Source: an uncultured Dehalococcoidia bacterium (lineage in GTDB: Bacteria; Chloroflexota; Dehalococcoidia; Lucifugimonadales; UBA826). Taken from it: 64,000 nt of DNA. Position 1 is the stretch's first letter. Each line of letters starts with the position of its first letter. Where the stretch lies: NCBI GenBank assembly GCA_964500645.1, contig CAZCOH010000002.1, positions 51,735-115,734 on the forward strand, given 5' to 3'. The notes beneath the pieces were generated by a model. That model saw only the letters and a program-made list of their open reading frames with translations. It ran no database searches and had not been told where the DNA came from. Shown here one piece after another: positions 2,873 to 40,727 of this stretch. A program made the translations under genes and the position numbers.

Positions 2873-4273
2873 ATGGCTTCTGAAACAAATCGGCAGGCCG
2901 CGACAGTATGGAATGCAGTTCTTGGCAAACTCGAACTAACTATACCGCGACCCAGCTATGAAACATGGATAAAAAATAGCGTAGGGCTTTCAATTGATGA
3001 GGAAAGTCTCACAGTTTCGGTTGACGACGCATTCACGGCTCAATACCTCAAAGACAGAATGTCGGGAATAATTGAAACTAAGATTCGAGATGTCACTGGA
3101 CAGAATCATCAGGTCATGTTTTTAGTAAAGGGTGACAAAAATATCACTTATACGGATGATCCCGAAACTCAAACAAAGTCTAACCAAGATCGTAAAATTC
3201 ACAATACCGTGGACGTCAATTCAGATAATAATCAAGGTTCCATGGCTAGAATGCCAAAATTAAATCCAAAATATACATTTGAAAATTTTGTTTTGGGGAA
3301 CTCAAACGAATTAGCTCTGGCTGGTGCTAAGGCAGCAGCAGAAAACCCAGGCCATTCTTTTAATCCATTGGTTATATACTCGGATGTAGGGCTTGGAAAA
3401 ACTCATCTCTTACATGCAATAGGACACGAAGTTTCAAAAAAAGGCCTAAACTGTGTTTATGTAACGTGTGAGGAATTTACTAACCAGTACGTGAAATCAA
3501 TTCAACAAGGTAGCACTGAAAAATTTCGGGATTTTTATCGTTCCTCTGATGTCTTACTTTTGGACGATGTTCAATTTCTGATTGCCAAAGAGCAAACACA
3601 AGAAGGATTTTTCCATACATTTAACGCACTCCATATGGCAAACAAACAAATCGTCGTCACTAGCGATAGGCCAGTATCCTCTCTGAATGTATTAGAGCAA
3701 AGAATAACGTCCAGGTTAGCGGGGGGTCTGGTTGCAGACATGCAACCACCGCCTTTCGAGACTAGACTTGCAATACTTCAAAAAAAAGCTCGCAAAATGG
3801 ACTGCGATGTTCCTTCAGATGTGTTGGAATATCTAGCTAAAAGAATTCAATCTAATGTTAGAGACTTGGAAGGAAGTTTGAATCGAGTCATTGCATGGTC
3901 CCAATTTCGTGAATCTTCCATATCACTGAACGACGTGACTATACTCATCGGTGAAAGCTGGACAACAATGCGAGGGAAAACAATAACAGATGCAGCCGTG
4001 ATATCAGCAGTCTCCGAACATTTTGGGATAACTACAGAGCAAATTAGAGGAAAGGGTCGGCGCAAAATGACTGTTTTATCGAGGCAGGTCGCCATGTACT
4101 TGCTTAGAGAGGAAACAGACTTAAGCTTTACAGCAATTGGAAAAATCTTAGGCGGTAGAGATCATTCCACAGTCCTACATGGTCACGAAAGAGTTTCAAT
4201 CAAGATTGAACAGGACGACTCCCTAAGAAACGACGTTATTAAGATACGTCACTCAATGATGGGGAAATTTTAG
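2873..4273 (+). CDS. dnaA: chromosomal replication initiator DnaA
   Basis: 466-aa ORF with Walker A GLGKTHLLHAIG, Walker B LLLDDVQF and the C-terminal DNA-binding region (GGRDHSTVLHG). Confidence 0.95.
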   Translation: MASETNRQAATVWNAVLGKLELTIPRPSYETWIKNSVGLSIDEESLTVSVDDAFTAQYLKDRMSGIIETKIRDVTGQNHQVMFLVKGDKNITYTDDPETQTKSNQDRKIHNTVDVNSDNNQGSMARMPKLNPKYTFENFVLGNSNELALAGAKAAAENPGHSFNPLVIYSDVGLGKTHLLHAIGHEVSKKGLNCVYVTCEEFTNQYVKSIQQGSTEKFRDFYRSSDVLLLDDVQFLIAKEQTQEGFFHTFNALHMANKQIVVTSDRPVSSLNVLEQRITSRLAGGLVADMQPPPFETRLAILQKKARKMDCDVPSDVLEYLAKRIQSNVRDLEGSLNRVIAWSQFRESSISLNDVTILIGESWTTMRGKTITDAAVISAVSEHFGITTEQIRGKGRRKMTVLSRQVAMYLLREETDLSFTAIGKILGGRDHSTVLHGHERVSIKIEQDDSLRNDVIKIRHSMMGKF

Positions 4274-5619: not shown

Positions 5620-7124
5620 TACTGTATTTTGCCCCGTTTATTTATAAATTGCCCATAAACAAAAGGTATAAGAGAAAGGAAGGCCGCCACACCCATTATT
5701 ACAGTAGACACTTCATAGGCCCGGCTCATTGAAATAGTGTAAGCACTTCTAAGCCCAACATCATTTAAACTATCAGGATCTGACAGGTCTGCGTCATAAC
5801 CCATTGATGCCATCACAGCTACTACTATTGCTGTTGGGACAGCAATTCCAATTATATGAGCACCATTCCTAGTCAAATTCATAAAGGCAGATACTATTCC
5901 GTAATGTGTTCTACCGGCACTACCCATTATGGAACTCGTGTTGGGCGCCATGAACATACTCAGTCCCATTCCAGACAATCCAGAGGCCAACGCAACTATT
6001 AGAGGATCCGACTCGAGCCTTATCACAGAAAATAGATACATCGCCACAGTGCAACAACACAAACCCGTAAAAGCTGGAATAGTTGTTCCTATTTTATCTG
6101 CTACTCTTCCACTTATTGGACCTACTATCATAAGGGTTACGGAACTTGGCAGTAGATATAGTGCGGCCAATCCGGTACTCATCCCAACTACTGAAACTAG
6201 GAAAAATGGGATAAGGAAAAAAGTACTAGTCCCCGCCATGAATGCTAGGAAACGCGCGGATGAACCCACTGAAAATAAAATTTTATTAAATAAAGACAAG
6301 GGTAGCATGGGAAAAGGTGCTCGTCGCTCCCACACAATAAACATTAAAAACAAAACCACAGTGAGCACTAGTCCCACAATTATCGTTCCGGAAAACCACC
6401 CTAATTTTTGCCCAAATGTAACCGTGAGCATAAAGGTCAATAACAAAATTGCCGACAATCCTGTTCCTGTCCAATCAAACTGGCTTAACGACGGCCCTTT
6501 CCTATCTCCACTTTTATGATCCGACTGTAATATCAGGCTTGCTACCAAACAAGAGACCAAACTAAAAAGCGTAATAAATACAAAAATCGATCTCCACCCC
6601 AGCCAACTTTCCATCCCGCCACCCAACAATGGCCCTGCCATAGCCCCTATACCCACAGATGTCATATGTAACCCACTTGCTTTACCACGCTCTGAATCTG
6701 GAAATGCGCCCGCCACCATGGCCATACCGTTAGCCTGGAGAGCAGAAGCAGAAAGCCCCATAAGAACCTTCCCAAACAACACCATTTGAAAATTCGGTGC
6801 TACTGAAGTTATCAACGAGGCAATAGAGAAGGCAATTAGTCCCCAAATCCACACCCTCCTGCGACCCAGTGTGTCGGCGATTGCTCCTGCAGGCATCATC
6901 ATTGCACTAACAGCCAACATTGATCCTACCGTTAGCCATTGTGCTGTTGGTATATCTGCTCCAAATTCTCTAGCAATCGAAGGAATTACAATAGCAGTAG
7001 CTGATTGCTCAACTACTGTTATGAATGTGCCTATTGCTATTGCACAATAAGTCCAATAACGAAAATGTGGACTCTTCTCCAGGAAACTAAGTGGTAAATT
7101 CAATCGTCCTAGGCACCTAAGCAA
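5619..7124 (-). CDS. MFS transporter, DHA2 (14-TMS, EmrB/QacA-like)
   Basis: 501 aa and polytopic. It has the DTLGRRRVW loop motif and resembles the MFS genes at 55175 and 61877. The TTG start is uncertain. Confidence 0.8.
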   Translation of the reverse strand: MLRCLGRLNLPLSFLEKSPHFRYWTYCAIAIGTFITVVEQSATAIVIPSIAREFGADIPTAQWLTVGSMLAVSAMMMPAGAIADTLGRRRVWIWGLIAFSIASLITSVAPNFQMVLFGKVLMGLSASALQANGMAMVAGAFPDSERGKASGLHMTSVGIGAMAGPLLGGGMESWLGWRSIFVFITLFSLVSCLVASLILQSDHKSGDRKGPSLSQFDWTGTGLSAILLLTFMLTVTFGQKLGWFSGTIIVGLVLTVVLFLMFIVWERRAPFPMLPLSLFNKILFSVGSSARFLAFMAGTSTFFLIPFFLVSVVGMSTGLAALYLLPSSVTLMIVGPISGRVADKIGTTIPAFTGLCCCTVAMYLFSVIRLESDPLIVALASGLSGMGLSMFMAPNTSSIMGSAGRTHYGIVSAFMNLTRNGAHIIGIAVPTAIVVAVMASMGYDADLSDPDSLNDVGLRSAYTISMSRAYEVSTVIMGVAAFLSLIPFVYGQFINKRGKIQ

Positions 7125-28123: not shown

Positions 28124-29341
28124 TCAGATTAGAGGAATCGGTAGATCAGCAGGGATAGCTCCGCTTTGTACCATACGTGAGATATCTATGTCAGAAATGC
28201 CTATCTCTTTTAGAACTTGATGAGTATCTGCTCCAAATGAAGGGGGAACAATGTCGATGAGTTTGTTTCCTGACATAGATACAGGGTTACCTGGCCAGGT
28301 AGTATTTCCCCAATTTGTTTGATCTTTTGGAGTGTCATCAGAGGAATATTCATAATCTGTTTTTATAACCATTCCATTCTCTTGGTTGTAAGGATCTGAA
28401 TGAAGGTCTAGAGCCGTGTTATTACGAACAGCAGGAATTCCTGCTGTATTCAAAATAATTTCCCAATCTGAAACAGACTTTGTTTCAAAGATTTTCTCTA
28501 TTAAATGAACTTCACCTGACTGTATTGCCTTACAAAAAGCTGGAATTGCCTTGAAATTGTCACGTTCTGATTTAGTGGAAGCAGAAATGAAGATCCATCC
28601 GTCACTGCATTCGTAAAGTCTGTTGCAACAGTCTTTACCTCTAGCCCCGGGTCCACCTATCTCTTCCCTATTAAAACCATCGTAATCAATGTTATAAGAA
28701 CCGGTAATTGTTGATGAGGTATATGACAGGGCGGCTTCGACTTTTTGTCCTCTACCTGTTTTGTTGCGTTCCAATATAGCTAACATAATTGCGAATGCGG
28801 CTGATATTCCTGTTCCGTAATCATTCAAAGTAAATGTAGCCGGACGAGGTTTTATAGTTTCACTATTGGGATCGGCCGGAATTCCGGAATTTCGCAGTTG
28901 TACGCCTGTGGCGGCCTGGGCATTTTGTTCAAACCCTGGTCTCAATTGCCACGGGCCTTCGTGTCCGAAGCAATTTATTGAGCCGTAAATAAGAGATGGA
29001 TTTCTCTCGGAGAGCCTTTCGTATCCGATTCCAAGTCGATCGGCCACTCCTTTTCTAAATCCTTCTATGATTACATCAGCAGAATCTGCCAATTTCAGGA
29101 ATGCTTCAATACCTCCTGGCTTATTCAAATTAAGTGAAATACTTCTTTTTCCACGCCCTACGTCAAGCCAAGGTGTAAGTTGAGGGAGACGGTGATCCGG
29201 GTCTATTTTTATTACTTCTGCGCCATACTGTGCCAAAGTTCTTCCGCAAGTAGGACCTGCAAGGACAATACAGAGATCTAGAACCCGTATTCCTTCCAAC
29301 GGCGGTGATTCAGTCATTTGAACCTGCTCTTTGCTATTCAT
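28124..29341 (-). CDS. family III CoA-transferase (CaiB/BaiF/Frc-like), catalytic-Asp-containing module
   Basis: LEGIRVLDLCIVLAGPTCGRTLAQYGAEVIKID N-terminal motif and LNDYGTG...LERNKTGRGQ active-site region. I prefer ATG 29341, which overlaps the upstream stop as ATGAATAG, over the track's ATG at 29380. Confidence 0.85.
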   Translation of the reverse strand: MNSKEQVQMTESPPLEGIRVLDLCIVLAGPTCGRTLAQYGAEVIKIDPDHRLPQLTPWLDVGRGKRSISLNLNKPGGIEAFLKLADSADVIIEGFRKGVADRLGIGYERLSERNPSLIYGSINCFGHEGPWQLRPGFEQNAQAATGVQLRNSGIPADPNSETIKPRPATFTLNDYGTGISAAFAIMLAILERNKTGRGQKVEAALSYTSSTITGSYNIDYDGFNREEIGGPGARGKDCCNRLYECSDGWIFISASTKSERDNFKAIPAFCKAIQSGEVHLIEKIFETKSVSDWEIILNTAGIPAVRNNTALDLHSDPYNQENGMVIKTDYEYSSDDTPKDQTNWGNTTWPGNPVSMSGNKLIDIVPPSFGADTHQVLKEIGISDIDISRMVQSGAIPADLPIPLI

Positions 29342-30416
29342 GGCTATTTCCAATGTATGGCGCGCCACCAGAAACTGCACCCGGATTAGACAGAGTCCTA
29401 ACTAAAACCCCGGGTTGTTTCATTTTCCCGAAACGAGGATCATTAATTTCTATAATCGCACTAGATCGCAAGGCGTGTTCTTCATTAACCCACTCGTCGA
29501 TACTTCGACACATAGTAACCGGTAGGCCCACATCTGACATTAAAGATTCCCATTCCAGAGCGGTTCGTTGTTTCCAAACTGCATTAATTTTGTATTTCCA
29601 AGAAGCTATCAAGGAGGAATCAGGATTGGAGAGCCCGATACTAGAAATCTCTTTCATCCATTCAGGATGCTCTATAACATCAAGAAATATCTCTAAAAAC
29701 CTTGGGATCGATAGATTTACATTTACCCATCTATTGTCTGAGCATTCATAGAACCTCTCGATAATTGGATGGCCTTCTTGCCTACCATGACTCCTCTTTG
29801 CATGGCGTATTAGAGCAGTTCCCATACCTTGGAACATAGCATCATGTATTGGTACCGTGATTCTTTGACCTATTTTTGTGAGATCTCTTTGAATAAGAGC
29901 TGCTACGACTGCGGGAGCAGCAGTCATGGCAGCAAAGGTGCTGGCGTAGTGAAGACTATGAAAAGAGGGTCCCTCTCCTTCAACAGGGAATTCACCTGAA
30001 GGATTGAGAGCATAGATCGCTGCAGATGCGGCAACTAATTCTTCTCTGGCGGGTATATTCTCGTATTTATGGCCTTCCCGGAATGCAGGCAACGAGACAG
30101 TAATTAGGCCTGCATTTGTTTTAGAAAGGATATCTGACGTCAGTCCTATATCATCTGCCTGATGTGGATTTAAGCACTCGATTAAAACATCAGCGTCACT
30201 AAGAAATTCAAGAATAGTTTCTAAGGAAAATGAAGTGTTGATTTGAGTCTTACCCCTGTTCCAAACAGCGTGTTCAGCAGTGCCTTCTAGGGGATTTCCT
30301 TCTTCAGGGCAAATTTTTAACACGTCGGCACCTTGGTCAGCCAACAGCATTCCTAAAATATGACCCGCAGGATAGTTACTGAGTTCGACTACCTTAAATT
30401 GATCTAGGACACCCAA
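29334..30416 (-). CDS. family III CoA-transferase paralogue without an Asp at the catalytic position
   Basis: FKVVELSNYPAGHILGMLLADQGADVLKI N-terminal motif. The equivalent active-site stretch reads LHYASTFAAMTAAPAVVAALIQRDLTKIGQ, with no acidic residue. Confidence 0.8.
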   Translation of the reverse strand: MGVLDQFKVVELSNYPAGHILGMLLADQGADVLKICPEEGNPLEGTAEHAVWNRGKTQINTSFSLETILEFLSDADVLIECLNPHQADDIGLTSDILSKTNAGLITVSLPAFREGHKYENIPAREELVAASAAIYALNPSGEFPVEGEGPSFHSLHYASTFAAMTAAPAVVAALIQRDLTKIGQRITVPIHDAMFQGMGTALIRHAKRSHGRQEGHPIIERFYECSDNRWVNVNLSIPRFLEIFLDVIEHPEWMKEISSIGLSNPDSSLIASWKYKINAVWKQRTALEWESLMSDVGLPVTMCRSIDEWVNEEHALRSSAIIEINDPRFGKMKQPGVLVRTLSNPGAVSGGAPYIGNSHE

Positions 30417-30512: not shown

Positions 30513-32156
30513 TTATTTGCGATATTGGTCTATTCCGACGGTAGCAGCCGTGGGACCAGATGGGAATACCAGTGTTTTGGCCCTATCTGCTCCTACTACA
30601 ACTAGATCGATATTGTCTGCACTATGAAGCAGGGGTACTTCAATTGCCAATCTTTCCTTTTCTGTCTTGTCTTTGAGATAGTGCCATTGTTCATCAACTC
30701 TCGCATCATTAAGGGGCATATACTGAATCATTTTTCCGAGACTGTGGTTGGCATGCTTGTGTATAAACTCTTTGGCATCTTGCTTTGTGAAGCCCTCGTT
30801 GCCTACCGGCCCTGCTACGTCCGGAGGCATGAATATAAGTCTCTCATGACCCTGTGCATGACTACCCCCCAAGGTGGTATTTCCGAAGGTTATGCCGTAT
30901 GCCAATGTTTTTAGTAACCCTTCTGCTGATGTATTACCTTGGTCCTGAACATCAAGCTCTCCATCTGTAACAAAAATAGAAATAGCACTTTCTTTTCCGT
31001 CAAACCCACGATCCTGAGAATAGCTCGGCCAGGGGCTCATATCTTCATTTTCAGCCACGCATTGAATAAATTTCCTTGTCGTGCCTATGGTGTCCATATC
31101 CATTTTGTTCGGATACCACATGCCTATATTTCGGAGACACAAATAAAAGGCTCTACCTATAGTTATGTTTATCTCGTTTTCTTTTCCAGGTCCAAGAGCT
31201 GACCGGGGATTCAAGCCAACCTCTTTGGCGATTGGACCGTTAACAACAAGAATAGGGGCGTGCGGGCTAGTAGACATAAGTAAAGATTTGCCGCCGTGGG
31301 CGCCCATTTCTGATAAGCATTTCACGCCGGCGATTATAATTGGCATGTGTTCCGGCTTCGCCCCGGCGAGAGCGGAGTTTATTGCTATTTTCTCAACGGT
31401 GGCGACACCAAAACCCGGGGGCATATCGCACACAATATCGTCCGATTTCAGACCTGTTCCAGAAATTAAGTCAGCCACTGCTTCATCTGTTGCGGGATAT
31501 AAAGGAAGGGCATCCGACCACTCTCTTTTATTGAATTCCGCATTCATCTTCAAAACAGCGTCGTATCTATCCTCTCCTTCAAATCGTATTTTAGATTCTT
31601 CCTCTTCCTCTGTTACGGATGAGATTCCCTCCGATGTCAGGCAAGCTATAAGATCGTCTATGGCTTCTTCAGTTTGTGAGACACACAGATCATCTGCTAG
31701 ATTGCGGTAAATACGAGGAACAATAACAAATTGGAGGTCTGGCATCCCGAAGGTTTTGCTACTTGCGATTGCATCGTCTTTAAAACGCCCAGATACAATT
31801 GGAACCGCAGGTTTTCCCATTTTCTCAATTTCTATCATGTCGTGGCACATCCACGACGCGCAGGTCCCTCAATCAGCTGTGGCTCCGATTACAACGTCGC
31901 ATTCTTCTCCCGCTTGTTTCACTATGGGTGGAGGAGTAGGGTAATTTCCCCCAGTGTAAAAATTGATTTTAACGTTGGAAAATCTTTCCTGAATTATTTC
32001 TCCGGCCCTGTTGAGAGCTAAGTCCCCACCATGGGTTCCACTCCATACTAAACCTATTGTTAAGTCATTTAAGGTACTTGGACGAGGATTAGTTTTTAGT
32101 ACATTCATCATGCCTCGTTGCTGAGCAACTGGGTTTGAAACTTCAAGAAGGTGCAT
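30513..32156 (-). CDS. candidate selenoprotein (in-frame UGA at 31869..31871 read as Sec); GrdB/PrdB-like or UGSC-like Sec loop plus ~450-aa domain of unknown function
   Basis: Track ORFs 31869..32156 and 30513..31850 share strand and frame. They are separated only by TGA plus 6 sense codons, giving ...CDVVIGATAD-U-GTCASWMCHDMIEIEKMGKPAVPIV... A strong SD (GGAGGA) precedes ATG 32156 and none precedes ATG 31850. A SECIS-like hairpin lies 11 nt after the UGA. Confidence 0.65.
31839..31857 (-). promoter_or_regulatory. candidate bacterial SECIS hairpin
   Basis: Minus-strand RNA reads UGA-GGGACCUGCGC-GUCGUGG-AUGUG-CCACGAC. This is a perfect 7-bp stem with a 5-nt loop containing G and U, and the stem starts 11 nt after the UGA. 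Confidence 0.55.
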
Positions 32157-32345
32157 ATTGATCCTCCAGACAGATATCTAATTATTTATAGAAAAGTCAC
32201 ATATTTAATTAATTCATCGTGATTATACAAGAGGTCATAAATTCAAGTTTTGTCTATGCTCACACTATTGAACGTTACAATCAGAGAGAGTTGGAACGGT
32301 ATAATTCTGGGCAATGGTGATGACTTCACGATAAAGGCCGAAGAA

Positions 32346-32955: not shown

Positions 32956-33972
32956 ATGAAAAGCGGACAAGTAATCGATCAATATAAAAGACCCTTAAGG
33001 GATTTACGAGTTTCTGTTACTGACAGATGTAATTTCAGATGTCCTTATTGTATGCCGGCAGAAATATATGGTGAAAGGTATCAATTTCTCCCAAGAAACG
33101 ACCTACTGACATTTGAGGAGATAACCAATGTCGTGGAGGCCTGTGTGGAACTTGGTGTAAGAAAAATCCGCCTGACTGGTGGAGAACCCTTGGTTAGACA
33201 GGATGTTCATGAACTCATCGCCATGCTGGCTAATATAGATGGAATCGATGATATAGCAATGACAACAAACGCATATCTTTTGGCTGGCTCGGCTCAGACC
33301 TTGAAAGATGCTGGATTAAATCGAATCACTGTTAGTATGGATTCTCTAGATGATGAAGTTTTCCAAAAAATGAATGGTAGGGGTTTTAGTACAGCAAAAG
33401 TTATAGATGGAATTAGTGCTGCTAAAGATGCGGGATTAGTTCCGATCAAAATAAACGCCGTAGTCCAAAAGGGCGTTAATGATAAATCAGTGATTGATTT
33501 GGCTCGCTGGTGTCGCGAAAGTGGTTACACTCCTAGGTTTATCGAGTATATGGATGTAGGTAACTTAAATAATTGGAAACTTGAAGAGGTGGTGCCAGCC
33601 CAAGCTATAGTTGAACTTATAGGTAATGTGTTTCCGGTTCAACCAATCCAATCTTCCTATGTGGGTGAGGTAGCAAAACGTTTTAAATACAAAGATGGCA
33701 AAGGTGAATTTGGTGTAATTTCATCAGTAACTCAGCCATTTTGTGGAGATTGTACGAGAATGCGTCTTTCTCCAGAGGGACAGGCCGTAACTTGCCTGTT
33801 TGCTGAAAAAGGTACTGATCTCAGGACGCCTTTAAGAAATGGGGCTGGCAAATCTGAATTAATGGAACTTATACAAAATATTTGGAGAGTTCGGGAAGAT
33901 AAATATTCAGAAAAGAGAACGGAAATGACGGATACAAGGCAAAAAGTAGAGATGTACCACATTGGTGGATAG
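32956..33972 (+). CDS. moaA: GTP 3',8-cyclase MoaA (radical SAM)
   Basis: [10 protein letters not shown] radical-SAM cluster motif, a C-terminal [10 protein letters not shown] cluster motif and a GG tail. Confidence 0.9.
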
Positions 33973-33977
33973 TTAAA

Positions 33978-34892
33978 GTGATTACTATATACACAGATGG
34001 GGCTTGTTTAGGTAATCCTGGACCAGGTGGTTGGGGGGCCGTGATCTTAGGTGATGGACCTCGACGAGTTCTTCATGGGAACGATCCCGATACAACAAAC
34101 AATAGAATGGAGATAAAGGCGGTAGTAAAAGCCCTGCAAAGCATTCCATTGAAGTCAGAAGTGACTGTTTATTCAGATTCATCTTATGTAATTAATACAA
34201 TGACAAAGAACTGGAAGCGTAAAAAAAACAATGATATGTGGGACCTTTTAGATAAAGAGGTTTTGATAAGAAATGTAAGTTGGGAATGGGTTAAAGGTCA
34301 TGCGGGAGACCCATTGAATGAGGAGGCCGATAGGTTGGCCCATGGAGAGGCGACGGGAACCATAGATTCTAAAGAAAAAAGAGATGAGGTAAACATGAGT
34401 GCCATAAAGGAAAATCTCGAAGAAAAACTTACTCATGTTGATGATTCCGGTAAAGCAAGTATGGTAGATGTGGGAGCGAAACCGGATACGGAGAGGGTTG
34501 CGGAGGCGGTGGGAACGGTAAAAATGCTACCAAGCACCTTGCAATTGGTTAAAGAGAATTCTCTTGAGAAAGGTGATGTGCTGGCTATTGCCAAAATTGC
34601 AGGAATTATGGGTGCAAAGCAGACATCAAATCTCATACCTCTTTGTCACCCACTACCTATAACGCACGTAGATCTAAGTTTTGAAATAAATTCAAAAGAT
34701 TCGGCCGTAGAAATTAAAAGTATGGCTAAAACGCAGAGTAAAACCGGGGTGGAGATGGAGGCCTTAACTGCGGTTTCTATAGCCGCTTTAACCATCTATG
34801 ATATGTGTAAGGCTGTAGATAAGGGCATGGAGATGAGTACGAAACTTCTTAGTAAGAAGGGAGGTAGATCAGGTGATGTCTATCTTGGCTAG
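33978..34892 (+). CDS. single ORF encoding RNase HI domain fused to MoaC (cyclic pyranopterin monophosphate synthase)
   Basis: Residues 1-125 are [20 protein letters not shown]...TNNRMEIKA...YSDSSYV...[20 protein letters not shown] (RNase HI; the D, E, D, D catalytic residues all appear present). Residues ~150-304 are [18 protein letters not shown]...[28 protein letters not shown]...[27 protein letters not shown] (MoaC). There is an internal SD plus ATG at 34395. The fusion depends on the length of the A6 run at 34375..34380. Confidence 0.7.
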
Positions 34893-37390: not shown

Positions 37391-38152
37391 TTGGATTACA
37401 TTAGTCAGAATTTGGACATAGAAATATTGGCTAAAACTGATGTAGGGAAAAAAAGAACTAGAAATGAGGACAATTTCATTCAGCTTCCAAAATCTATTGG
37501 AGAAATAAAGGCGGTTTTGGGAGTTGCTGATGGGATGGGTGGGCATGCTGCAGGAGATGTTGCGAGTAGAATCGCGGTTGAAACTTTCCAGGAAGTGTTT
37601 TCTAGAACTAGTATCGGACATCGGCAGATCAAGGATTTACTGAATGACACTTTCTTGATGGCTAACAAGGAAATTGTAAAAAAAGGAAAAACTAACTCCG
37701 AAGGGTCAATGGGGACGACGTGTACAGTTGCTGTCTTTACAGGTGTTGAGTGTCATATAGGCCATGTTGGTGATAGCAGGGCATACTTGATGAGAGATGG
37801 AGAATTGAACCAGTTGACCGACGATCACAGTTGGGTTGCGCAATTGGTGAAAGATGGACATATAACGAACGAACAAGCGCGAGTTCATCCAAACCGTAAC
37901 GTTATAACCAAGGCTCTTGGTATTGACGATGATGTGAAGTCCGACTTCATAAAATTAGAAATACATTCTGGGGATCGATTATTAATATGTTCGGATGGTC
38001 TTCATGGCTTGGTGGAAGATTCAACAATTTGCGATTTCTTGAGAGAGGGATCGGCTGAAGAGATGGTTGATAGGCTAATTGAAGAAGCAAATGACAATGG
38101 TGGGCATGACAACATAACTGTAGCCATTGCCATGTTTGAGCAGGCTATCTAG
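37391..38152 (+). CDS. PP2C-family Ser/Thr protein phosphatase (Stp-like)
   Basis: RTRNEDN, GVADGMGGHAAGDVAS, GDSRAYL, CSDGL and DNITV motifs. TTG start. Confidence 0.85.
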   Translation: MDYISQNLDIEILAKTDVGKKRTRNEDNFIQLPKSIGEIKAVLGVADGMGGHAAGDVASRIAVETFQEVFSRTSIGHRQIKDLLNDTFLMANKEIVKKGKTNSEGSMGTTCTVAVFTGVECHIGHVGDSRAYLMRDGELNQLTDDHSWVAQLVKDGHITNEQARVHPNRNVITKALGIDDDVKSDFIKLEIHSGDRLLICSDGLHGLVEDSTICDFLREGSAEEMVDRLIEEANDNGGHDNITVAIAMFEQAI

Positions 38153-40727
38153 TTCCTAGAAGTTTTTTAGAAATAGAGCCACTTTGTTTCATAGAAGAGA
38201 TAGTTTCTTCGTCGTATCCTAGGCCTTTCAGGATTTCTTCATTATGTTCTCCAAATAACGGACTGGATATAGAAGGAAGACTAGTACGGTTAGAAAATCT
38301 CCAGGTTGGCCTAACTGTTCTATGAGTACCTACAATAGAGTGAGTCACAGAGATAAAAACGTTTCTTTCTTTGATGTGATCATCATCTAGAAGAGAAGCA
38401 GCTGTTGCCACTGATGATGCTGTGATTTGTTTTGACTGAAGTAAGTTCTCTAATTCGTCAGCATCTTTCTCGCGGGTCCATTCTGATATCACTTTATCTA
38501 TCTGTTCCGTATATTTTAGTCTGCCCTGCAAAGTCGAATATTCCCGGTTATAGAGTCTGGGATCTTCTACGATTTTTTGTAGGGCTTCCCACTCTTTGTT
38601 ACTTTGACAATCAATGGCGATCCATCTATCAGACACTTCACCTACGGGATTTCTGTCAGGCCCTAGAACTATTCTTGGTTTATCGTCTGTCTTGCATGGG
38701 TATATATTATGAGGAATAGAAGAATTGGAACTGTTGCCTAGCCTTAATTCCATGGGAAATCCTAATGATTCCGCTATAAAAAATTCTCCAACAAGGCCAG
38801 TGACTCCATCTCTTTGAGGCAGGACACAATAGCATCCGTAGCCTGTTTTCTCTCTTCTTAACAGCGCGGCGGCAATAGCAGCAGCACATGTGGCCCCTGC
38901 GATAGGATCGCCATAGGAAATTCCTGTTTTGTGTGGTTCTCCTCCCTTATATCCTTGTAGTGCGACAAGCCCTCCCATTTGCTCTATAGTTGGGCCAAAT
39001 CCCACCATGGATGAATCTGAACCCTCGTGACCAAAACCTGGCATGGTGACGTATATGATTTTGGGATTAATGGCTCTTATGTCTTGATAACCTAAAGCGT
39101 TTCGATCAGCCACCCCGGAAGACCAATTTTCAAGGAAGACATCTGAGGTGGCTATTAGCTTTTTCAGTGCTTCTAGGCCACTTTTTTGTTTTATATCGAC
39201 GGCGAACCCTCTCTTACCCCGGTTATATTCACTAAAGTATGCGGATATGTTTATGTCTGGTTCCCCAGCACGATGTTGTCTTGTGGCGGTTCTGATGGGG
39301 TCGGGAAAAGTAGGCCCTTCTACCTTTATAACATCCGCGCCCATATCCGCGAGGAACCGGGCAGCGTAGGGGCCAGACCAGACTTGAGTCATGTCAATAA
39401 CTCGAAGGCCCTTAAAAGGAGGGGCATATGGGTCCTCACATTCTGTTGATTCCGTAATATTGGTTGTATTTTTAGGAGTTTTAGATTGGCTACGTAATGT
39501 TTCAAGTACTTCTTTTGTGTGTTGTCCTAAGGTTGGCGCAGGCCTAAACACCCCTTTATCTGGAAGTGCTTTTTTTCCTCCTTTATCAGGGCTAAACCAT
39601 ATTGGTCCAGACGGGACGGGGTGATCACCTAATACTGGATGAGTAACTTTCTGCCAGAATTCTATTTCTTGATAGTGGCGCCAATTTAAAAGGTCTCTAG
39701 GTTCTGGGATCATGGCAAACGGAGCGCGGTAAGAATTTGCTACTTCAAAAATCTCCTCAGCGTTATGTTCTAAAGTAAATAATGGTACTAAATGTCTTAA
39801 TAAATCGTCAGCTTCTTGACTCCAAGTATTGTCTTTGAAAAGAGGATCATCTTTTAATGTTGAGGCGTTTATTGTGTCCAAAACAGAGTGGGTTTGACGA
39901 GGCATGGATGCAACACCGATCCATCCATTTTTGCAAGGGTGGACGCCCCATAAGGCCCTTGGATTGTTGCCTCCTCTCGGTTGTTCAGATCCATACCAAA
40001 GGGCGGCTGGGCCTGCCCCTTCAAGGGTGGCGGCCTGAACTTCTTGTAAAGATATGTCAAGAATATCTCCTTTACCGGTTCTCTCGGCTGCGAATAAAGC
40101 GGTTAATGTACCACCGAGTGCGTGAAGACTTCCTTGTATGTGTGCCTGATGTCCTGCCGTCATAAGTGGTTCCCTGTCCGGGTCACCTGTTAGGTACATC
40201 TGGCCACCAGATGCAAAACTTGTCATTGCACTGGTTTTCCATAAGGATTTAGGTCCAGTTTGTCCGTAGGGAGATATCCTTGTGACACACAGTGATGGTT
40301 TGATATTCGAAAGCTCTTCAAGATCTATGCCGAATTCTGTCAGATATCCTGGCTGGTAGCTATCAACTACGGCGTCTGAGCTGAGAACAAGATCCTTTAA
40401 TATACGAATATCCTTCGGTTGATTTAAGTCTAGGCGTACGGATTTTTTTCCTGTGCCCATGTATGCAAATAGGATACTTTTTTCAATATCATACTGTGAT
40501 GTTAAGGGGTTACCTCCATCTCCATAAGGAGGGAGTCGCCTGAGGATATTCCCCTCCGGTGGCTCAACGAGTATAACTTCGGCACCGTAGGCTGCCATCA
40601 ACCTTCCAACGTTGGCGGCAGCTACGTCGTTTCCAAATTCCACTATTCTCAAACCACTGAGAATTTGATCCAATGTTTTTGTCTCCCTCAAAAGTTTAAT
40701 TGAATATTGGCAGGACCCTGTCGGCAA
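38145..40727 (-). CDS. tandem fusion of two family III CoA-transferase modules
   Basis: 860 aa. Module 1 starts LSGLRIVEFGNDVAAANVGRLMAAYGAEVILVE and module 2 starts FKGLRVIDMTQVWSGPYAARFLADMGADVIKVE. Only module 2 has the GDxxxG active-site Asp (YGDPIAGATCAAAIAAALLRREKTGYG). An alternative TTG start at 40673 lies behind GAGGGAG. Confidence 0.85.
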   Translation of the reverse strand: MPTGSCQYSIKLLRETKTLDQILSGLRIVEFGNDVAAANVGRLMAAYGAEVILVEPPEGNILRRLPPYGDGGNPLTSQYDIEKSILFAYMGTGKKSVRLDLNQPKDIRILKDLVLSSDAVVDSYQPGYLTEFGIDLEELSNIKPSLCVTRISPYGQTGPKSLWKTSAMTSFASGGQMYLTGDPDREPLMTAGHQAHIQGSLHALGGTLTALFAAERTGKGDILDISLQEVQAATLEGAGPAALWYGSEQPRGGNNPRALWGVHPCKNGWIGVASMPRQTHSVLDTINASTLKDDPLFKDNTWSQEADDLLRHLVPLFTLEHNAEEIFEVANSYRAPFAMIPEPRDLLNWRHYQEIEFWQKVTHPVLGDHPVPSGPIWFSPDKGGKKALPDKGVFRPAPTLGQHTKEVLETLRSQSKTPKNTTNITESTECEDPYAPPFKGLRVIDMTQVWSGPYAARFLADMGADVIKVEGPTFPDPIRTATRQHRAGEPDINISAYFSEYNRGKRGFAVDIKQKSGLEALKKLIATSDVFLENWSSGVADRNALGYQDIRAINPKIIYVTMPGFGHEGSDSSMVGFGPTIEQMGGLVALQGYKGGEPHKTGISYGDPIAGATCAAAIAAALLRREKTGYGCYCVLPQRDGVTGLVGEFFIAESLGFPMELRLGNSSNSSIPHNIYPCKTDDKPRIVLGPDRNPVGEVSDRWIAIDCQSNKEWEALQKIVEDPRLYNREYSTLQGRLKYTEQIDKVISEWTREKDADELENLLQSKQITASSVATAASLLDDDHIKERNVFISVTHSIVGTHRTVRPTWRFSNRTSLPSISSPLFGEHNEEILKGLGYDEETISSMKQSGSISKKLLGTR

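Follow-up and report, generated by a model that had tools for sequence, protein, structure and literature searches.

An in-frame UGA within a UGSC domain fused to a large uncharacterized C-terminal domain in a probable selenoprotein gene of Dehalococcoidia

The DNA analyzed here is a stretch of 64,000 nucleotides (nt) from an uncultured Dehalococcoidia bacterium (GenBank assembly GCA_964500645.1, contig CAZCOH010000002.1, positions 51,735 to 115,734), referred to below as the window and numbered from its first letter. On its minus strand, two open reading frames (ORFs) in the same frame are separated by a UGA codon and six sense codons. Sequence comparisons indicate that this UGA is very probably a selenocysteine (Sec) codon, and that read-through with Sec insertion joins the two ORFs into one 547-residue protein of a marine SAR202 bacterium. 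The protein has an N-terminal domain of the UGSC family (residues 7-174) and a C-terminal domain (residues ~189-547), the latter called the C-domain below. For the locus as a whole, the best explanation, and one that we consider likely, is a single selenoprotein gene in which the UGSC domain is fused to the C-domain and which may have a redox or coenzyme A (CoA)-linked role.

Gene layout and reading frame

The complete coding sequence lies at 30513..32156 on the minus strand and comprises 547 codons, with Sec as codon 96, followed by a TAA stop. The frame and the protein sequence are kept across the TGA in 80 related genomes. In the ORF listing the gene appears as two ORFs of 95 and 445 amino acids that share one frame. 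Between the TGA (31871..31869) and the ATG at 31850 that opens the second ORF there are six sense codons, GGG ACC TGC GCG TCG TGG (G T C A S W), and the frame after this ATG ends at the TAA at 30515..30513. The read-through product of 547 residues thus reads ...EECDVVIGATAD-U-GTCASWMCHDMIEIEK... around the Sec position. The UGA opens a U-G-T-C redox-type motif (UxxC; 31860..31871, minus strand), which directly follows a hydrophobic beta-strand.

The start codon of the joined gene (ATG, 32156..32154) is preceded by a Shine-Dalgarno sequence, GGAGGA (32162..32167, minus strand), with a spacer of 5 nt, and the N-terminus that it predicts, MHLLEV.NPVA, is kept in the orthologs. The ATG at 31850 has no preceding Shine-Dalgarno sequence. 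It lies in the loop of a perfect 7-bp hairpin (31857..31839), the stem of which begins 11 nt past the UGA. A preliminary description of this DNA, made from the letters and a list of ORFs, had placed the two ORFs, the TGA with its six following codons and the hairpin at these coordinates, had put the UGA in a UxxC motif after a beta-strand, and had taken the upstream ATG as the real start; all of this was borne out. Within the window, 31869..31871 is the sole plausible site at which a TGA joins two ORFs. A second TGA-joined pair, at 6517, was rejected, being antisense to a gene for a major facilitator superfamily (MFS) transporter.

Conservation of the UGA codon

Related loci were sought by scanning one genome per species. 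The scan found 236 relatives, the best 80 of which were fetched and aligned with the window to give 81 sequences. Nearly all of these 80 come from metagenome-assembled genomes (MAGs) of SAR202 and other Dehalococcoidia, with Candidatus Entotheonella in addition; one contig, CAYFIW010000001.1 ('uncultured Dehalococcoidia'), is 98% identical. A TGA was found at the same codon in every one of the 80 related loci, that is, in 81/81 sequences with the window included. Upstream of it the relatives share the in-frame pattern M[HY]LLEV.NPV...GLxWSGTHGGD...FYTGGNYP...ECDVVIGATAD, and GATAD, immediately 5' to the UGA, is among the best-conserved parts of the upstream ORF. Downstream of the UGA they share GTCASWM[CV]HDMIE. 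The six codons that follow the UGA vary almost solely synonymously among the 81 sequences (Gly is GGG, GGA, GGC or GGT, Thr is ACG, ACC, ACA or ACT, and Cys is TGC or TGT); the lone non-synonymous change, in locus L071, replaces Ala by Cys at codon +4. These codons are therefore translated and do not form an intercistronic spacer. Both halves of the gene are under strong purifying selection, with 67-98% identity. The locus thus shows the feature by which members of the bacterial selenoprotein genes are recognized, an in-frame UGA with protein-level conservation on both flanks.

More distant homologs were found when 1.84 billion cluster representatives were searched with the C-domain. They include full-length proteins of 550-580 residues, with 33-38% identity, that have Cys in the motif D-C-G-S-C. 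In P0227, P0229, P0239, P0241, P0246, P0260 and P0286, a Cys is aligned with the UGA position (D-C-G-[SA]-C). Other Sec lineages have GATAD-U-GSC or GSTGD-U-GAC at the same place. Among the best 150 representatives, at least 44 begin just past the U position and 19 span it, and from these sequences Sec forms appear to dominate over Cys forms. The aligned column is thus Sec or Cys, and homologs do not terminate meaningfully at the UGA, as the preliminary reading of a selenoprotein gene implied. The same reading took the TGA to be genuine and not a read error, and its presence in 80 independent assemblies agrees with this.

Marine Dehalococcoidia MAGs are among the most selenoprotein-rich bacteria in a 2026 database paper, with 46-49 selenoproteins (PMC13326102), and the Sec trait is therefore likely to be present in the lineage. 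Our literature search found no paper that ties SAR202 to selenoproteins. The 45 long ORFs of the window end with TAA in 22 cases, with TAG in 19 and with TGA in 4. Each of the TGA-ending ORFs soon meets further stops, and no other gene in the 64 kb is split by a TGA; TGA thus serves as a true, though uncommon, stop in the window, and there is no general reassignment of it. In neighboring genes, TGA makes up ~14% of stops in the closest relatives (L001-L018) and ~31% in more distant Dehalococcoidia loci.

The split is also seen in the databases. When the read-through protein was compared with 5.8 billion database proteins, 726 matches were obtained. The best 120 of these all begin just 3' to the UGA and cover 63-81% of the query, and no match to the N-terminal domain among the 5.8 billion proteins crosses the UGA. 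It had been foreseen that gene callers would split the gene, and they do. In all entries examined for the SAR202 ortholog group the gene is broken at the Sec codon, which amounts to a systematic mis-annotation of the protein and of its UGSC domain.

The UGSC domain

The N-terminal domain (31635..32138, minus strand) scores 96.4 bits with the Pfam model PF24696, 'UGSC family', for which the cut-off is 25. Residues 7-174 of the protein are aligned with model positions 3-171 of 172, and the match runs across the Sec codon. The likeness to the UGSC-containing family of marine selenoproteins, which the preliminary description had pointed out, is thus correct. The score with the NCBIfam model NF041046, 'UGSC family (seleno)protein', is 86.9 bits, under the equivalog cut-off of 125, which makes the domain a relative, and not an equivalog, of the standalone UGSC (seleno)protein. 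In the UGSC-domain alignment, position 96 (U or C), G97 and C99 are invariant. The third position of the motif, T in the window, is S, T or A across the family, and the Gly, Thr and Cys codons that follow the UGA vary synonymously only.

UGSC-containing proteins form a selenoprotein family already known from marine sources, with UxxC as its motif and an unknown function (PMC2398784, PMC9402790, PMC13188914). In the Global Ocean Sampling (GOS) metagenome, 255 UGSC sequences had Sec and 21 had Cys (PMC2398784). By abundance the family ranks in the top four or five of the selenoprotein families in ocean metagenomes, and in a later survey it accounted for 8.2% of selenoprotein genes. A thioredoxin-like fold has been suggested for it (PMC2398784). 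An AlphaFold model was made for the full-length Cys homolog P0229, with a pLDDT (predicted local distance difference test) score of 92 and a pTM (predicted template modeling) score of 0.93. When it was compared with PDB structures by Foldseek, only flavodoxin-like proteins were matched, and weakly (azoreductase, flavodoxin and FMN reductase; E ~1e-4, TM ~0.4), in alignments of 150-210 columns, roughly the length of the UGSC domain. Among the 50 PDB matches listed for this model, which is that of the homolog and not of the window protein, there was no thioredoxin-fold protein. A flavodoxin-like alpha/beta fold is therefore predicted for the UGSC domain.

A conserved hairpin after the UGA

The SECIS-like hairpin (selenocysteine insertion sequence), GUCGUGG-AUGUG-CCACGAC, occupies 31839..31857 on the minus strand. 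It belongs to the minimum-free-energy (MFE) fold of its region and by itself has a dG of -10.2 kcal/mol. The UGA and the stem are 11 nt apart, as has also been reported for the minimal E. coli fdhF SECIS. Third positions are nearly frozen in codons +3 to +10 after the UGA, with Ala as GCG in 76/80 cases, Ser as TCG in 79/81, Val as GTC in 57/58, His as CAC in 79/81 and Asp as GAC in 81/81. Codon entropy there is at most 0.5 bit, against 0.6-2.3 bits at the variable flanking codons, and elsewhere in the alignment the same amino acids use all their codons. The frozen third positions pair with one another in the stem. Over the 81 sequences, standard pairs are found in 99.1% of cells, compared with 14-57% after a shift of the 3' strand by 1-3 columns. 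A compensatory change from G:C to A:U (UCA...CAU) occurs in L007 and L009, and within 60 nt 3' to the UGA no alternative conserved structure was seen. These comparisons support the view that the hairpin behaves as a conserved RNA element.

The consensus for bacterial SECIS elements (bSECIS) has a stem of 4-16 bp, a loop of 3-9 nt, a distance from the UGA to the loop of 16-37 nt and an MFE of -7.5 kcal/mol or lower, and has a G, then G or U, inside the opening two positions of the apical loop (PMC13188914, Fig. 2). The geometry and energy of the window hairpin lie within these limits (a 7-bp stem, a 5-nt loop, a distance of 18 nt and -10.2 kcal/mol). The loop found in the majority of orthologs, A-U-G-G-U, can close an A:U pair to give an 8-bp stem with the loop UGG, which is compatible with the consensus.

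The C-domain and its partnership with UGSC

The C-domain (30516..31592, minus strand) belongs to a large uncharacterized family. No Pfam or NCBIfam model matches residues ~189-547, whereas 3,583 cluster representatives were found for the family at E<=1e-3. In ten family members the source name is 'hypothetical protein', or 'peroxiredoxin' in the case of a redoxin fusion. The AlphaFold model of the window's own C-domain has a pLDDT of 93 and a pTM of 0.92. Foldseek found nothing significant for this model in the PDB, the best match being cyanuric acid hydrolase (E=0.04, TM 0.21), and a sequence profile of the C-domain gave 0 matches to PDB sequences. Residues D215, A264, G307, R335 and E369 are invariant in the C-domain.

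The domains to which the C-domain is fused were informative. At its N-terminus these are UGSC domains, with Sec or Cys, or AhpC/TSA-type redoxin domains with CxxC (P0315 and relatives). At its C-terminus, P0360 has a domain like the beta subunit of ferredoxin:thioredoxin reductase (FTR). The locus of P0360 (L082, 5452..7488) encodes a triple fusion of a UGSC domain with Sec (IAS-U-GSC), a C-domain and an FTR-beta domain with CPC/CHC; it is annotated as two genes and is followed downstream by genes for a fumarate-reductase-like flavoprotein and a 2Fe-2S protein. Where the C-domain is encoded by a gene of its own, a UGSC gene is found no more than two genes away in 6/6 loci. This UGSC gene is usually split by a TGA, that is, in the Sec form, with U-G-S-C in L081 and L083. 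Because the C-domain is elsewhere fused to UGSC or encoded near it, the window protein is, as far as these sequences indicate, a 'Rosetta-stone' fusion of two obligate partners.

Other arrangements were also seen. In P0276, P0281, P0295 and P0296 (713-741 amino acids) and in L088 (266..2491), ~375 residues that match no Pfam model precede the C-domain. In two groundwater contigs (L090, 5001..7827, and L091, 4907..7736), a TGA-split UGSC gene is adjoined by two genes without annotation, whose products, of 343 and 352 amino acids, have the size of a C-domain; the 343-residue product alone was confirmed as a C-domain homolog, and an SBP_bac_5/ABC transporter and a VOC/PhnB-like gene are nearby.

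Gene neighborhood and proposed function

Directly 3' to the selenoprotein gene, and on the same strand, are two genes for family III CoA-transferases (Pfam PF02515), both of which are probable operon partners. The first (29334..30416, minus strand) is also downstream of the selenoprotein gene in the closest SAR202 clade, and the second (28124..29380, minus strand) is kept in L001-L012. No terminator-like site was found between the selenoprotein gene and the CoA-transferase gene that follows it. As listed, the two CoA-transferase ORFs overlap by 47 nt (29334..29380), probably because the GTG start of 28124..29380 was called too far upstream.

A CoA_transf_3 gene adjoins the unfused UGSC and C-domain genes in L081 and L083 and the triple fusion in L082, and is present in 19/80 loci. 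The neighbors in other clades include sucC/sucD, TctC carboxylate-binding proteins, an aconitase-like pair, Lyase_1 and a fumarate-reductase-like flavoprotein. These recurrent neighbors suggest a metabolism of carboxylates and CoA esters. The genes sucC and sucD are normally adjacent. In ~16 Dehalococcoidia loci (L028, L035, L039, L041, L042, L043, L054, L058 and others), the selenoprotein gene and a VOC/PhnB-like gene are located between the two. A tRNA-Ser(UGA) gene lies just 5' to sucC in most of the tRNA-scanned loci of this sucC/sucD clade.

If the gene follows the canonical bacterial mechanism for UGA reading, translation would start at ATG 32156, the hairpin at 31857..31839 would recruit SelB with Sec-tRNA(Sec) at the UGA (31871..31869), and Sec would be inserted as residue 96. 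The U96-x-x-C99 pair might then cycle between the selenol/thiol and selenenylsulfide states and, as an internal redox or nucleophilic partner, take part in a reaction carried out by the C-domain. As substrate, a carboxylic acid activated with CoA may be considered, perhaps a di- or tricarboxylate, which would be handled together with the two downstream family III CoA-transferases. Re-reduction of the oxidized U-C pair would fall to a thioredoxin-type system or, in the relative at L082, to the fused FTR-like domain. On the evidence of the fusions and gene neighborhoods, a redox partnership of U-x-x-C with the C-domain seems to us evenly balanced between right and wrong, and a CoA-linked carboxylate as the substrate is a tentative suggestion.

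Pursued further, these observations raise the rather doubtful possibility that UGSC and the C-domain make up an unrecognized selenium-dependent enzyme system, either fused or two-component. The C-domain would bind a CoA-activated di- or tricarboxylate, U-x-x-C would carry out a reductive step or a nucleophile-dependent isomerization, and a thioredoxin or FTR-like Fe-S module would recycle it. Such a system, if it exists, would correspond in function to the glycine and proline reductases and would occur widely in SAR202 and in other marine and groundwater bacteria.

Alternative explanations

Several observations weigh against a single selenoprotein gene with a SECIS-like hairpin and a redox or CoA-linked role. 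Neither selA, selB, selD nor a tRNA-Sec gene was found in the window (Pfam, 30 ORFs; ARAGORN) or in loci L001-L060 (ARAGORN), as is expected for so little sequence. The window sequence alone gives an unexceptional fold in the region of the hairpin (z = -1.67); because the single-sequence fold is not statistically unusual, the case rests on the comparison across genomes. Within that comparison only a single compensatory pair was seen, in two related genomes, and since most stem pairs never vary, the support comes mainly from selection at synonymous sites. The window loop, A-U-G-U-G, has its G at position 3, outside the first two positions of the consensus. No Rfam SECIS model matched the window at gathering thresholds or the segment 31760..31920 at E<=10, the sole match being a chance one on the opposite strand. 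The SECIS likeness claimed at the outset stands in geometry, energy and conservation, while the position of the loop G in the window and the Rfam search weigh against it. The C-domain has no universally conserved Cys. Paralogs of CoA-transferase III are abundant in the lineage, with at least 3 genes in the window, and their adjacency in SAR202 could therefore be partly due to chance. Neighborhoods differ from clade to clade, and the function is a matter of inference only.

Some of these points would fit an explanation in which Sec is inserted but another element recruits SelB, the hairpin being conserved because of codon or amino acid constraints on ASWM[CV]HD, or for mRNA stability or ribosome pausing. 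The window loop does break the rule of a G at loop position 1 or 2, covariation is confined to one pair, and the Trp and Met codons within the element could not vary in any case. The frozen sites, however, are third positions that could vary freely, in codons for Ala, Ser, Val/Cys, His and Asp, and each pairs with another third position in the stem; the same amino acids use all codons elsewhere in the gene, and no other structure is conserved in the 60 nt past the UGA. We therefore think it very improbable that the hairpin is not the SECIS. The UGA might, on the other hand, be read as a standard amino acid and without selenium, through near-cognate Trp or Cys suppression or a lineage-wide reassignment. 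The unusual rarity of TGA as a stop (4 of the 45 window ORFs, compared with 19 for TAG) is in keeping with this, as is the failure to find Sec machinery within the window and the scanned loci. Yet the ORFs that end in TGA quickly meet further stops and no second gene in the 64 kb is split by a TGA, while the UGA is matched in homologs by the Cys of a redox motif, as is classical for Sec and Cys, and is followed by a conserved hairpin at SECIS spacing. Given also that UGSC is an established selenoprotein family (PMC2398784) and that Dehalococcoidia MAGs are reported to be selenoprotein-rich (PMC13326102), decoding as a standard amino acid is very unlikely.

Two separate genes would be present if the UGA were the true stop of a 95-residue protein and the 445-residue ORF were translated from AUG 31850, for example by termination-reinitiation, with the two halves assembling non-covalently. 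The annotation agrees with this in every database entry found, the ATG 18 nt after the UGA is conserved, and UGSC and the C-domain do exist separately in other organisms. But a break at this point would cut PF24696 (residues 7-174) in mid-domain and part U/C96 from C99, and the six codons that would then be intercistronic are under protein-level selection in the 81 sequences. The Met of the conserved ATG is also found inside ...SW[LIM].HD... of the full-length Cys homologs, which are continuous polypeptides, and ATG 31850 lacks a Shine-Dalgarno sequence. We give this arrangement very little chance. Even less credible is a TGA that arose by sequencing or assembly error or by a recent inactivating mutation that left a pseudogene. 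A single base change does turn TGC or TGT (Cys) into TGA, but the identical TGA recurs in 80 assemblies that were made independently in different projects, additional metagenomic contigs have it too, and both halves are under strong purifying selection (67-98% identity).

Significance of the gene

The Sec assignment in itself will not surprise a specialist. The function of UGSC, however, has been unknown since 2005, and it now becomes experimentally approachable through the hypothesis of a selenium-dependent step of organic-acid metabolism in SAR202, a dominant lineage of the deep ocean. In the literature that we searched, three points were absent: the obligate pairing of UGSC with the C-domain, the confidently predicted C-domain fold that has no solved relative, and the recurrent context of CoA-transferases and FTR-like domains.

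Other features of the window

The window has a G+C content of 42% and carries families typical of SAR202: CoA-transferase III paralogs, a luciferase-like monooxygenase, and enolase-superfamily and MFS proteins. One gene on the minus strand (38145..40727) encodes an 860-residue protein with two family III CoA-transferase units; this is the third CoA_transf_3 gene within 12 kb. A DnaA gene is located at 2873..4273 on the plus strand, and the window therefore probably adjoins the chromosomal replication origin. Directly after moaA (32956..33972) there is a 304-residue ORF on the plus strand (33978..34892) that combines RNase H (residues 2-123) with MoaC (162-296). It has a full-length match in L001, L004, L006, L011, L012 and L016; in L003, L007 and L009 only the MoaC part is matched.

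Comparison with known systems

Among known selenoproteins, the window protein most directly resembles the UGSC family (PF24696), with which it shares Sec at the same place of a U-G-x-C motif after a beta-strand, a marine origin and an excess of Sec forms over Cys forms. It differs in having U-G-T-C instead of U-G-S-C, and in its length of 547 residues, with a C-domain of ~360 residues, compared with ~175-200 residues for typical standalone members. In addition, whereas a thioredoxin-like fold was suggested in the UGSC literature, the AlphaFold model of the homolog matches flavodoxin-like folds.

In 2008 a 'UGSC/Unknown_1' fusion was reported from GOS, and the Unknown_1 domain was also found alone in some aquatic organisms (Zhang & Gladyshev; PMC2398784, Fig. 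S1A). The pattern of a UGSC domain joined to a domain of unknown function that also stands alone matches the window protein and its relatives. A fusion of UGSC with such a domain had thus probably been reported already, and the gene would be one of a known kind, with Unknown_1 as a possible counterpart of the C-domain.

GrdB and PrdB, the selenoprotein B subunits of the glycine/sarcosine/betaine and D-proline reductases, depend on Sec and act in concert with further subunits, and thioredoxin-type systems re-reduce them. The preliminary description had likened the sequence around the UGA to the Sec loop of these proteins. What GrdB/PrdB (PF07355) and the window protein have in common is a hydrophobic strand, U-x-x-C, a helix and a ..lE..G[IV]PTV.. 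strand, and the GOS 'PrdB-like' selenoproteins show the local pattern of a strand, U-P-x-C, a helix and lE..GIPTV. When UGSC domains were compared with GOS PrdB-like sequences by hhalign, the first Cys/Sec positions were aligned in a weak match of 57 columns with a probability of 52.7%. The Pfam model GRDB (PF07355) gave no match to the window protein at E<=1. No GrdA-, GrdE- or PrdA-type partners are found nearby, the partners of the window gene being a novel domain and CoA-transferases. The local motif and its aligned Sec/Cys position thus stand from the earlier comparison, while membership of the GRDB family does not; the resemblance is one of local motif only and may serve, by analogy, as a mechanistic lead.

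Finally, the hairpin resembles a SECIS of the E. coli fdhF type, and bSECIS elements generally, in its location within the coding sequence 11 nt after the UGA, its 7-bp stem and the presence of G and U in its 5-nt loop. It differs from them in having no bulged U and in placing the loop G at position 3 and not at 1-2, and it is a putative SelB site.

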